31,991 nt of DNA from Acaryochloridaceae cyanobacterium VAR_48_metabat_390 (GTDB lineage Bacteria > Cyanobacteriota > Cyanobacteriia > Thermosynechococcales > Thermosynechococcaceae): positions 1 through 31,991 of the forward strand of contig JANPLU010000105.1 in the NCBI GenBank assembly GCA_031422435.1, written 5' to 3'. The position numbers were made by a program. Shown here piece by piece: positions 18,001 to 21,000 of the stretch. Position 1 is the first letter of the stretch, and each line of letters begins with the position of its first letter.

Positions 18001-21000
18001 CATCAATGCCAAAACCCTGGCTAAAATGAAGCCCACGGCTCGTATTGTCAACTGTGCGCGGGGCGGCATTATTGACGAAGTGGCGATCTCCGAAGCCATC
18101 CAAAATGGCGTAATTGCTGGGGCAGCACTAGACGTATTTGAAAACGAACCCTTGGGGGAATCACCTTTACTGCACGTCGAAGGGGATCTTATTCTGACCC
18201 CTCACCTAGGCGCTTCGACTGAAGAAGCCCAAACCAACGTGGCGATCGACGTGGCGGAGCAAATCCGAGACGTGTTGCTGGGTCTAACGGCTCGCTCTGC
18301 GGTTAATATCCCTGGGTTGCGGCCTGAGGTGATGGAGCAGCTTAAGCCCTCGCTCATGCTGGCTGAAACCCTAGGGAACCTCGTGGGGCAGCTTGCAGGC
18401 GGACGTATTGAATCTTTAGAGATTCGGCTTCAGGGCGAAGTAGCTTCTTTTGATGCCCAGCCCATCGTGATTGCAGCGCTAAAGGGTTTGCTTACACCTG
18501 CGCTGCAAGAGCGCGTGAACTACGTTAATGCCGCCATTGAAGCCAAAGATCGCGGGATTCGGGTGATTGAAACGCGAGATGCTTCGATTCGGGACTATTC
18601 GGGTTCTATTCACCTAACGGCAAAAAGCCCCCGAGAAACGCGAACGGTGACAGGCGCACTCCTGAACCATGAGGAGCTACGCATTACCAACATTGATGAT
18701 TTCCCTATTAACGTACCGCCGACACGTCACATGCTGATTACGCAGCATCGGGACATGCCTGGGATCATTGGTCAAATTGGGTCGCTGCTAGGGCAATTTA
18801 ACGTCAATATTGCCAGTATGCAGGTGGGTCGCAAGCTCGTCCGTGGCAACGCAGTGATGGTTTTGAGCCTAGATGATCCTCTGCCAGAAGGGGTGCTGGC
18901 TGAAATTGTGAAGGTTAACGGCATTACTGATGCCTATATTGTGAATCTATAGGGCGTAATTCCTCGCCCACGGGGGCAGCTCATCAATCGCCTCTATCTC
19001 CTATCGGAGAGGCTTCGCCAAGGGGAGGGGCAGGGGTCGGTTAGTCGTGGTGCTACTGACGAACCCACCCCGCCCTACGGGCACCCCTCCTAGGAGAGGG
19101 TTTTCTCGGGTTTTTGGTGGGTATACAGTAGCGCTTTAGGGGGGTTGGCCTAGGCTAAACCCCTCTATTTATGGAACCAGTTTTAATGAGGTTAACAGAT
19201 GGCAAACAGTCAATGGTGGGAGCTATGGGTATTAGCGGAACCAGCCTTAGATGAGCTGCTGTCTTGGGAGATTCAGTCGATGGGCTGTCAGGGCACTTCT
19301 AGCCAAATCAAGGACGGTCAGCTCCGTATTTGCGGGTATTTTGCTCAAAGTCAGGTTTCTGAGACGACACTGACTCAAATGGCAGATCGGCTCCGACTTT
19401 TGGCTCCGACGGCAAATTTAGGCAGTATTGAAGTGGGCTGGAATGTCATTCAAGAAGAGGACTGGGCCAGTAGCTGGAAAGATTATTGGCACCCCACGGA
19501 AGTGGGCGATCGCCTTCTCATCCACCCTGACTGGCTCCCTGTACCTATAACCGACCGAATTGTATTGCGACTGAACCCTGGAGTTGCCTTTGGCACAGGT
19601 GCCCACGCTACTACTCAGCTCTGTTTAGTGGCTCTAGAACAGCAGTTTGCAAAATCTACGGCATCCCCCTGTGTTGTTGCCGATATTGGCTGCGGCACCG
19701 GAATTTTGGCGATCGCCGCGCTTCAGTTTGGTGCAGGCCGCGCATTTGCCGTCGATACCGACCCCCTCGCGGTGCAGGCTGCCCAGGAGTGTCGAGATCT
19801 CAACGCCATAGAGCCGAGCCGTATGGTTGTAGAAGAAGGCAGCATTGAAACGGCGATCGCCTTGGCAAAAACGCCCGTAGATGGGTTCTGCTGCAATATT
19901 TTGGCTCATATTATTATTGAGCTGGTACCCCAGATGAAGCAGTTGGCGAAGCCGAAGGGCTGGGGCATTCTTAGCGGCATTTTACAAAAGCAGGTGCCGG
20001 ACGTGGTTGAAGCGTTGACGGCAAATGGTTGGAACGTAGAGGAACACTGGCAACAGGCCGACTGGGCTTGTTTAAAAATTATCTGTCCTGATTAGCTTTG
20101 ATTAATCTAGGGTAGCGACCTCGGGTCAGATCGCCACCTACATCAATAAGGAAAGTCCCTTCGGCACTAGCAGCATCCATACCCACAATGCTTTTTGGCT
20201 TTAGGCCTGCTAATTTGCGCCTTGTCCTTTCGGACAAGTAGCCGTTTCGGGGACTACGTGGGCTGTGCGGGGGGTATGACAGCCCAATCAATGTATTCAT
20301 ATAAACATATTTGTGAAGGGGGGCTAAAGCGAGAATTTACGGAACTTGAATTAAATTAATTTGTTTCGCCTCAGTAGTCTCACATCTGTAAATATACGGA
20401 TATTTCGGACAAAACCTCTAAGCGTTCAACGCTAGTGCACAAGACAGGAGGTAAAAGAGCCACCCTATGAAGGTTTCAATGATGTCAGGCTTCCATGATA
20501 TCGAATCAGGATTTCATGACACACTCAGCATTATCTACTCACTGTCTGAGAGTTCATCTCCCCGCAAGCCTCGAATGCCCCAATTGATTTTGGGTGTTTC
20601 AATGAGCGTAGTCTCTAAATCTAGAGGGAAATTTTAAGTTCTAGCTCAAATCGCTCAAACAGCAACCGAATGAGCTGCCGTTTGGTTGTGGCGGTGCGGC
20701 CTTCAAATATCAAAATTTCTAAGATGGTGTAGTTTTCAGTGCGATCGCCAGGATAGATAAATGTCTCTGGTTCTATAGAGAGTCGTATCGGTGTCTTATC
20801 ACAGATTTTGGGGTTGATGTTTTCCTCTACGAAGATTCCATAGCATCACAGGATTATCCTGACTTCAGCCATTGAGCCGCTGAGCGCGCACTGTTTCCTC
20901 GGCTGCTAGATAGGTTAAGACCCGCTACAATTAGGGATATAGCAAAATGTAAAGAAACATTGCGTCTTGCGGCTTTATGAATCCCCTCTCTTCCAATTCA

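Follow-up and report, generated by a model that had tools for sequence, protein, structure and literature searches.

A candidate stand-alone c-di-GMP-binding small RNA with a C-loop hairpin in cyanobacteria

SreA and SreB of Listeria and EutX/Rli55 are by-products that arise from leaders still in control of a gene, or contain an aptamer-gated sRNA body, and the RsaE/RoxS-type sRNAs of Firmicutes carry C-rich loops. Closer to the RNA treated here are the GEMM-I riboswitches Vc2 and Vc1 of Vibrio cholerae; Vc2 contacts its ligand through G20, A47 and C92 (PMC4744006). In the Vc2-containing sRNAs of V. cholerae, ligand binding shields the upstream RNA from degradation and does not act by termination, as reported by Pursley and Waters (bioRxiv 10.1101/617340). 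C. difficile has a c-di-GMP-II riboswitch that is stabilised by Hfq, and a "potential dual function" has been suggested for a c-di-GMP-II riboswitch (PMC8237595). For cyanobacteria, a 2023 review on c-di-GMP signalling reports that no c-di-GMP riboswitch had been identified (PMC10124867), and our literature search, which covered sources outside subscription journals, found no description of a GEMM-I RNA from this phylum.

The unit described here has the same aptamer as the GEMM-I riboswitches, with a full-length match, a helix with a GAAA tetraloop, covarying helices and a conserved core. It differs from them in three respects: the copy analysed has neither a downstream ORF nor a recognisable expression platform, a 5' hairpin with a run of C is added outside the Rfam model, and the unit has a promoter-like box of its own, to which many copies add a predicted terminator. 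In the Vc2 sRNAs the GEMM-I aptamer likewise lies towards the 3' end of the non-coding RNA, and these sRNAs are the model for the mechanism proposed below. However, Vc2 is also found in the leader of tfoY, where it acts on that gene, and no such gene accompanies the cyanobacterial unit; in addition, the part of the cyanobacterial RNA ahead of the aptamer is far smaller, comprising one hairpin, and this RNA belongs to a multi-copy family kept across cyanobacterial families. SreA/SreB, EutX/Rli55 and the C. difficile riboswitch are similar in being aptamer RNAs with a role beyond cis control. In contrast to them, the cyanobacterial unit looks like a dedicated gene. With the RsaE/RoxS type it seems to share an unpaired C-run in a hairpin loop as candidate seed, without any sequence relation.

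Composition of the unit

We analysed contig JANPLU010000105.1 (C105) of Acaryochloridaceae cyanobacterium VAR_48_metabat_390 over its 31,991 nt, hereafter the window. The following features were located there:

20312..20317, minus strand: -35-like hexamer TTCACA (consensus scan, 9/12 match, 16-nt spacer)
20290..20295, minus strand: -10-like hexamer TACATT (consensus scan; the alternative box is the overlapping TATATGAAT)
20260..20285, minus strand: 5' hairpin, in which GGGCUGU (20285-20279) pairs with ACAGCCC (20266-20260) over 7 bp
20160..20253, minus strand: c-di-GMP-I (GEMM-I) aptamer, RF01051, matching the whole model (positions 1-87 of 87) at 48.2 bits, above the gathering score of 35
20250..20255, minus strand: 5' strand of helix P1, AGUCCC, pairing with 20159-20154
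20154..20159, minus strand: 3' strand of helix P1, GGGACU (from sequence and covariation)
20141..20153, minus strand: pyrimidine-rich, G-poor tail UUCCUUAUUGAUG, immediately 3' of P1
20111..20138, minus strand: 3' stem-loop GGUGGCGAUC-UGACCCGA-GGUCGCUACC without a U-tract, a candidate 3'-end structure
19199..20095, plus strand: prmA, a 298-aa ORF (Pfam PrmA, E = 2.9e-78), convergent neighbour and outer limit of the unit

By its whole-model score, which exceeds the gathering score, the window aptamer belongs to RF01051, and no other Rfam family matched between 19900 and 20500 at E<=1. The source genome contains three aptamer copies, on C105, C123 and C14; the two paralogues of the window copy score 45.9 and 40.5 bits with the Rfam model. 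With R1, a joint model of hairpin and aptamer in which a full-length match spans positions 1-144, each of the three units is full-length and reaches about 140 bits. Within the aptamer, helices 4-7 are 95-100% paired with changes on both sides in 15 of 18 pairs, and the GAAA loop of the GNRA-tetraloop helix is invariant. Among the invariant columns in 29 sequences are the GG of GGC, CAAA and CCG, the last of which is also invariant in 101 units; these may include the equivalents of G20, A47 and C92 of Vc2. Because the conserved core is intact and 18 GGDEF domain matches are found in the source genome, we infer that the aptamer binds c-di-GMP.

The loop of the 5' hairpin has 12 nt (CAUACCCCCCGC) with the C6 run CCCCCC at 20274-20269. 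Five to eight C are present in the loop of all 101 distinct full-length units compared, with 5, 6, 7 and 8 C in 17, 53, 24 and 7 of them, respectively. The RNA probably begins with this hairpin. The window locus has -35/-10-like hexamers ahead of it, although three such sites in the scanned region against 1.8 expected are weak evidence on their own. Of 101 units compared, 86 have a TAnnnT-type box ending 2-15 nt before the hairpin, the rate at randomly chosen positions of the same loci being 23%, and the Pseudanabaena copies have TTGCAA-17-TAGATT ending 7 nt ahead of GGGC. An own promoter, as expected for an sRNA gene, is therefore suggested by consensus matches. A C-run upstream of the -35 region was also considered as a general DNA element and was dismissed, since it occurs in only 8 of 117 units against a background of 3.5%.

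These results reproduce what the genome-wide survey's note had reported for the locus, namely an RF01051 aptamer, three copies in the genome on C105, C123 and C14, a GGGCUGU/ACAGCCC hairpin with a C6 loop and a -10-like box directly before it.

Covariation and lineage range

In an alignment of 102 sequences, 96.6% of cells are paired, compared to 33-47% when the partners are slid, and 29 of 32 pairs show changes on both sides; fitting the structural alignment (A2) to the model biases it toward the model's structure. None of 500 shuffles reached the observed covariation values. All seven pairs of the hairpin stem change on both sides (98.5% and 92.0% of cells paired in the 102 sequences), well over the slid controls, in line with the covariation previously claimed for the hairpin. 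The same holds for the seven pairs of P1 (96.6% of cells paired), with examples such as GGCUCU/AGAGCC and AGUCUC/GAGACU.

Two competing pairings were rejected. RNAalifold suggested pairing between the C-run and GGG in the 3' strand of P1, but units with GAGAC or GAGCC in this strand keep the C-run unchanged, and the P1 5' strand covaries, which argues against a conserved pairing. An alternative fold between the 5' arm of the hairpin and the 5' strand of P1 is impossible for the GACCCA arms of Pseudanabaena.

Full-length R1 units were found in 46 of 48 genomes of the organism's own family, in 1 to 12 copies per genome; Pseudanabaena and Thermosynechococcus have a single copy. The order-level search covered the same 48 genomes. 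In a class-wide sample, 20 of 151 genomes match R1, and 11 of these are outside the family. The claim that the unit is limited to Thermosynechococcaceae and Acaryochloris relatives is thus refuted: full-length units are present in 9/9 sampled Pseudanabaenaceae genomes and in 2/2 genomes of a third family, so that at least three families carry it. Even within the own family, the Rfam model with strict filters missed the small-genome genus, which we take as Thermosynechococcus and in which R1 detects the unit in 12 of 13 genomes. Wherever the aptamer was seen in the sampled genomes, it was within the composite unit with the C-loop hairpin. A match in a metagenome-assembled genome titled Rhizobium (L094) is a full unit; a G+C content of 45% and two HIP1 octamers at this locus lead us to regard the contig as cyanobacterial. 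The match in "bacterium DeMMO6_30" (L115) was discarded as a unit because it comprises the aptamer part only (35.7 bits).

Neighbouring genes and the 3' end

The end of prmA lies 15 nt past the 3' stem-loop, and its stop codon is 58 nt from P1. Between the unit and the region antisense to prmA there is no closed frame longer than 24 aa. Thus, as proposed earlier, the window copy leads no ORF, and the combination of a same-strand gene with an expression platform that marks a cis riboswitch was not found at this copy. A 73-aa ATG frame (20300-20079, minus strand) running through hairpin and aptamer was rejected as a gene because it has no Pfam match and because C123 and C14 lack any frame of >=70 aa across the unit. 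A 91-aa frame antisense to prmA, also without a Pfam match, was rejected as well. Just upstream of the unit, the window contains a decayed Tautomerase_2 gene.

Clustering of the downstream genes resulted in 42 clusters, 25 of them convergent. One convergent cluster belongs to L115, which is not a unit, and was left out; the remaining 41 contexts comprise 24 convergent and 17 co-directional ones. The description of the source genome's three copies as facing the convergent genes prmA, phoH and a LysR-type gene could be reproduced, but an orientation towards the 3' end of a convergent gene does not stand as a general rule. According to Pfam, 37 flanking ORFs include prmA, phoH, trpS, LysR, PALP, sugar transferase, SepF, GcpE, ALAD, TsaD, MOSC, moaA-like and others. 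As the downstream gene differs across the 41 contexts and occurs in both orientations, there is no consistent target in cis.

The intrinsic terminator scan of 19700-21000 called no terminator, in agreement with the absence of one noted before for C105, and the window copy has no canonical terminator. The 3' stem of the window copy is nevertheless kept, with differing loops, in the prmA-locus orthologues L018, L019, L025, L028 and L151. Across 101 units, the 11 nt after P1 consist of 56% U, 18% C, 19% A and 7% G, and in Acaryochloris P1 together with the U-rich tail (GGGACUUUAUUUUUAUGG) is an attractive candidate for the terminator itself. Of 102 units, 38 are followed by a hairpin with a U-tract no farther than about 150 nt away, mostly at +20 to +70 and generally 20-100 nt past the aptamer, and in these there is no room for an ORF between the unit and the terminator. 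The copies with such a terminator include C123, the Pseudanabaena copies, L011, L015, L023, L031, L032, L050, L053 and L054. The C123 terminator, with an A-tract on one flank and a U-tract on the other, should stop transcription in either direction.

These data bear on the possibility that the unit is a cis riboswitch gating c-di-GMP-dependent read-through, which would yield antisense RNA or interference against prmA and likewise against phoH and the LysR-type gene. Known cases of antisense RNA under riboswitch control are AspocR with a B12 riboswitch in Listeria and the S-box antisense RNA of the ubiG operon in Clostridium acetobutylicum. The idea gains from the three own-genome copies, all of which face a gene's 3' end, from the window copy having no canonical terminator ahead of prmA, and from the count of distinct units, which gives 59 downstream ORFs on the opposite strand and 24 on the same strand. 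However, once orthologous contexts are collapsed, the split is nearly even, and while riboswitch-gated antisense control would call for a convergent target every time, 17 of 41 contexts are co-directional. Further, the convergent genes have no common function, a strong terminator precedes the next gene in C123 and in 38/102 units overall, including the Pseudanabaena copies, and no terminator/antiterminator alternative involving P1 was seen in the window copy. Altogether, we consider gated read-through distinctly unlikely.

Another explanation is an ordinary 5' leader riboswitch which has lost its gene or from which the gene has moved away, so that it is a decaying relic, or which controls an unrecognised small ORF. 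In some lineages, same-strand ORFs follow the unit without a terminator visible in the scan. In five Thermosynechococcus-type loci examined, the distance from the unit to the start of a conserved same-strand ORF is 135-171 nt, and the single ORF examined in full has 533 aa; in genome g11 an EamA ORF starts at +61. There, the unit may act in cis. These ORFs, together with those in g13 and some other genomes, are what a leader origin would predict, and the decayed Tautomerase_2 gene points to local gene decay. Yet the same-strand ORFs of g11, g13 and g14 are mutually unrelated, and a relic is hardly expected to remain full-length in three copies at about 140 bits with R1, to keep its position next to PALP across two genera, or to show compensatory changes indicating continued selection. 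A hidden ORF is at odds with the mere 58 nt from P1 to the prmA stop codon, with the gap of just 20-70 nt between P1 and the terminator in many relatives, and with the lack of a Pfam match for either of the window's two frames (73 aa and 91 aa). A leader riboswitch, intact or decaying, is therefore very improbable at the window locus.

A probable stand-alone RNA and its possible output

Comparative sequence analysis shows a composite architecture with covariation, a promoter-like box, predicted terminators in many copies and no common neighbour. On balance, we favour the interpretation that 20295-20105 (minus strand) is an independent non-coding RNA gene encoding a stand-alone c-di-GMP-binding sRNA with a putative C-loop output in trans. 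The survey had read the three copies as stand-alone c-di-GMP-binding small RNAs, and the -10-like box (86/101), the terminators (38/102) and the unrelated neighbours speak for it. Instead of the 250-300 nt proposed at that time, a length of about 180-240 nt is likely.

A weak hint at expression comes from metatranscriptomes. Contigs from four runs (four studies) cover 20110-20281, and none extends upstream past 20281. They are 107-274 nt long, lie within 20028-20281, have a depth of 2-8 and show neither ends nor strand; relatives or paralogues may be their source, and carried-over DNA could also account for them. The end of one RNA-library contig is at 20110, and a 113-nt contig from run X17 has 0 differences. 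The prmA gene was uncovered in X16 and X17 and partly covered in X15 and X18; stretches that lack cover carry no information.

Under the proposed mechanism, transcription from a sigma-70-type promoter would start at GGGC (about 20285) or a few bases earlier. The RNA would consist of the C6-loop hairpin, a 4-nt linker, the aptamer closed by a P1 of 6-7 bp, the U/C-rich tail and the 3' stem-loop, amounting to roughly 180 nt for the window copy and about 190-240 nt in copies with a canonical terminator. Binding of c-di-GMP may lock P1 and the compact aptamer fold on the 3' side of the RNA, and the locked aptamer could shield the RNA from 3'-to-5' decay or fix its 3' end. The abundance of the RNA would then track c-di-GMP. 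The output surface would be the invariant single-stranded C-run, perhaps together with the CU-rich tail, through contacts in trans with a protein or an RNA site rich in G.

Putative trans targets were searched for in three complete Pseudanabaena genomes with complements of the invariant 15-nt loop, allowing <=3 mismatches. This gave 13-30 hits per strand compared to 25-32 for the reversed control, and the only exact matches to the complement of the Pseudanabaena loop were the units themselves; seeds of just 5-6 C are below the length that such a search can resolve. This outcome would also suit a c-di-GMP buffer or sponge, i.e. a target-free RNA which sequesters the messenger and in which the 5' hairpin and the 3' structures merely provide longevity. 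GEMM-I aptamers bind their ligand very tightly, a stand-alone gene with protecting structures at each end fits this role, and 1 to 12 copies per genome would scale the capacity. A sponge leaves unexplained, however, why the loop invariably keeps 5-8 C although the stem varies freely, and why the G-poor tail is conserved. We thus regard a sponge function as unlikely. For the stand-alone sRNA, it is tempting to speculate that its abundance or fold sets the trans activity of the poly-C loop and perhaps buffers the messenger, and that it constitutes the main RNA-level output of c-di-GMP in several cyanobacterial lineages, without a protein effector or a cis-regulated gene; this broader proposal is tentative and may well not hold.

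Genomes of Thermosynechococcaceae (among them Acaryochloris) and Pseudanabaenaceae commonly carry the aptamer, as do those of one or more other families. Culturable strains such as Acaryochloris marina MBIC11017, Altericista sp. CCNU0014, Pseudanabaena strains and Thermosynechococcus carry the unit, and experiments are therefore feasible. If the RNA is indeed a free-standing sensor, it would provide a directly testable link from c-di-GMP to gene regulation which needs neither a protein receptor nor a downstream gene, and it would represent a compact natural scaffold for ligand-controlled sRNAs.

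Architecture of the unit in the window and in its paralogues

The aptamer is a member of the c-di-GMP-I family RF01051. It was matched at 20253-20160 on the minus strand over the full length of the model (48.2 bits; gathering score 35), its core is intact, and no other Rfam family was found in the region 19900-20500, even at E<=1. It is closed by helix P1 and preceded by a hairpin, and we refer to hairpin and aptamer together as the unit.

Features of the window copy
20317-20312, minus: -35-like hexamer TTCACA (consensus match)
20295-20290, minus: -10-like hexamer TACATT (consensus match)
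20285-20279 and 20266-20260, minus: 5' hairpin, GGGCUGU paired with ACAGCCC, loop CAUACCCCCCGC (strand reading)
Between hairpin and P1, minus: linker ACGU (strand reading)
20255-20250 and 20159-20154, minus: helix P1 closing the aptamer, AGUCCC with GGGACU (strand reading)
Between P1 and the 3' stem-loop, minus: pyrimidine-rich stretch (strand reading)
20138-20111, minus: 3' stem-loop of 10 bp without U-tract (strand reading)
19199-20095: prmA, convergent, stop codon 15 nt past the 3' stem-loop (Pfam PrmA, E = 2.9e-78)

A scan of 19700-21000 called no terminator-like sites. Downstream of the unit, up to where the strand turns antisense to prmA, the longest frame has 24 aa. A 73-aa ATG frame crosses the hairpin and the aptamer; it has no match in Pfam, and neither paralogue contains a unit-spanning frame of 70 aa or more. 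Directly upstream (20540-20860, minus) lies a decayed Tautomerase_2 gene, which has a disrupted N-terminal part, an in-frame stop and then, near 20620, a frame shift. At the same place an intact 121-aa gene is found in the orthologous loci L018, L019, L025 and L028 (Pfam E = 9.7e-25 in L018), and the decay may be an assembly error of the MAG.

The genome contains three RF01051 matches, and all three copies share the -10-like box, the C6 hairpin, P1 and a U/C-rich tail, beyond which their sequences cannot be aligned. The genes behind them (prmA, phoH and a LysR-type regulator) are all convergent. Approximately 100 nt past P1, the copy on contig C123 has a strong terminator with a 5' A-tract and a 3' U-tract, the position of which predicts a frameless RNA of about 240 nt.

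Covariation, predicted promoters and terminators

The structural alignment comprised 102 matches at 100 loci, namely 101 full units and one aptamer-only match from a non-cyanobacterial MAG. Standard pairs filled 96.6% of the cells, compared to 33-47% with partners slid by 1-3 columns, although the fitting of the alignment to the model favours this value. In the same model-fitted alignment all seven hairpin pairs and all seven P1 pairs showed changes on both sides, and the observed pairing values were reached by none of 500 shuffles. The raw sequences agree with the covariation, GGGCUA...UAGCCC being replaced by GACCCA...UGGGUC in Pseudanabaena. The stem of the hairpin varies freely; the C-run of its loop is 5, 6, 7 or 8 nt long in 17, 53, 24 and 7 units, respectively. 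The 11 nt directly 3' of P1 are rich in U (56%) and poor in G (7%). Between this tail and the terminator, at +15 to +35 past P1, the motif ACAAYUGAAUA recurs in many genera (for example in L015, L022, L046, L095, L110, L131 and L138, and in Pseudanabaena L050-L054); in Pseudanabaena it is able to pair with a U-tract overlapping the P1 base.

A -10-like box, ending 2-15 nt 5' of the hairpin, was identified in 86 of 101 units, compared to 23% at random places in the same loci. The Pseudanabaena copies read TTGCAA, 17 nt, TAGATT, 7 nt, GGGC, and a strong terminator 30-60 nt past their P1 predicts an RNA of about 200 nt. Among the 102 distinct units having enough downstream sequence, 38 are followed by a hairpin with a U-tract within about 150 nt. 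Tandem units, 300-520 nt apart, occur at L024, L067, L112 and G030:C5:237078-237524; in the two that were read (L024, L067) each unit has a separate promoter-like box, and in L067 the scan placed a terminator behind each.

The palindrome CCGTA-N4-5-TACGG is present in 10 of 117 distinct units (L002, L031, L067, L101, L104 and others; 0.9% of random 89-nt windows). Its place is fixed immediately upstream of the -35 position (-48 to -57 relative to the hairpin), and it looks like an operator of a dedicated transcription factor. In the window copy the palindrome is degenerate (CCGTAAATTCTCGC, 20329-20342, minus). A second promoter type was found in ten units (L009, L022, L061, L093, L095, L109, L131, L139, L154, L169): spaced GAC...TTTC repeats, resembling the direct repeats of response regulators, terminate with CCCACCGACAAG, and a TATTCT-like box follows after about 17 nt.

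Lineage range

In the first set of loci the hairpin was located immediately 5' of the aptamer in 31 of 32 cases; the remaining locus, L004, has a classical aptamer (80.8 bits) ahead of an ORF in one MAG. The covariance model R1 (144 positions covering hairpin, P1 and aptamer), built from 29 distinct copies, was matched over its full length in 46 of the 48 Thermosynechococcaceae genomes; the two negative genomes are 82% and 90% complete. In the small-genome genus of this family R1 matched 12 of 13 genomes, and the Rfam model with strict filters none of the 13.

The genome-wide survey's note had confined the unit to Thermosynechococcaceae and Acaryochloris relatives, and this proved too narrow. 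In a class-wide sample R1 found it in 20 of 151 genomes, namely in our own, in all eight others of the family, in 9/9 genomes of Pseudanabaenaceae and in 2/2 of a third family, and in none of the 131 genomes of the remaining families sampled. Direct reading of the loci from these two further families revealed the identical hairpin type and C-run. With RF01051, six genomes matched in a class-wide sample of 151 drawn likewise, all in the three unit-bearing families; among the matches listed the aptamer places coincide with units, and the sampled genomes of other cyanobacterial families yielded no GEMM-I lacking the hairpin. In public genomes at least 118 stretches matched a pattern scan; Acaryochloris, Altericista, Thermosynechococcus, Petrachloros, Pseudanabaena, Tumidithrix and Stenomitos are among the genera named in the titles of the 80 matches listed. 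One to twelve units are present per genome. A complete unit of the Pseudanabaenaceae type (105 bits) was found at locus L094, on a 316-kb contig (CALRKB020000001.1) whose title is Rhizobium sp. Q54 MAG. The G+C content of the locus is 45%, and its 1.26 kb contain two HIP1 octamers; the contig therefore looks cyanobacterial, with an error in its binning or label.

Neighbouring genes, expression and proposed function

Since no gene is led in cis here, the arrangement is not that of a classical riboswitch, and no alternative pairing forming a classical expression platform was found in the window copy. The genes flanking the units are mutually unrelated housekeeping genes. Clustering of the downstream genes by similarity gave 42 contexts, 25 convergent (one of them non-unit) and 17 co-directional. 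This near-even split argues against a leader, which needs a co-directional gene, and likewise against an antisense controller, which needs a convergent one. In Thermosynechococcus-type genomes the unit may control an ORF in cis, since in each of five loci inspected one starts 135-171 nt past it. The ORF that was read completely (L173 1514-3115, minus, genome G038) encodes 533 aa without a Pfam family; in this protein about 100 structured N-terminal residues are followed by a long acidic region rich in Pro and Glu, and the C-terminal part contains a membrane segment with CxxC...CxxC. The copy adjacent to a PALP-family gene is kept at the same position in two genera, which points to long-term selection.

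Metatranscriptome assemblies provide a weak hint of expression. Four runs from four studies yielded short contigs on 20110-20281, at low depth and with ends and strand unreadable, and relatives, paralogues or DNA carry-over are possible sources. None extends upstream past 20281, a position 4 nt into the hairpin. One stops at 20110, one base beyond the 3' stem-loop, and one of 113 nt is identical to the window. In two of the four runs the unit was covered and prmA was not. Many RNA-library contigs also match a short G+C-rich dispersed repeat at 19063-19105, CCCACCCCGCCCTACGGGCACCCCTCCTAGGAGAGGG, diverging from the window on both flanks; a tRNA search found none there.

The genome encodes 18 GGDEF domains, and thus c-di-GMP is made in this organism; one of these domains is located in the window (29613-30089, minus) inside a 1066-aa open frame. 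According to a preprint on Vibrio cholerae (bioRxiv 10.1101/617340), the Vc2 aptamer forms the 3' end of sRNAs and its c-di-GMP-bound form protects them from degradation. Based on this precedent, the closest one, and since a platform pairing was not found in the window copy, we propose that c-di-GMP binding would stabilise the RNA or fix its 3' end. The exposed C-run could then serve as the output surface; in three Pseudanabaena genomes extended complements of the C-loop were no more frequent than in the control. Buffering of the messenger c-di-GMP by the RNA is a live alternative to such a regulatory output.

A 2023 review on c-di-GMP signalling in cyanobacteria states that c-di-GMP riboswitches had not been found there (PMC10124867). 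Our literature search, which covered sources outside subscription journals, returned no description of this RNA. The unit is similar to regulatory RNAs that contain an aptamer, the Vc2 sRNAs among them. In contrast to these, it would be a dedicated gene, predicted to extend from promoter to terminator, with an additional conserved module, and it is present in many copies per genome and across families.
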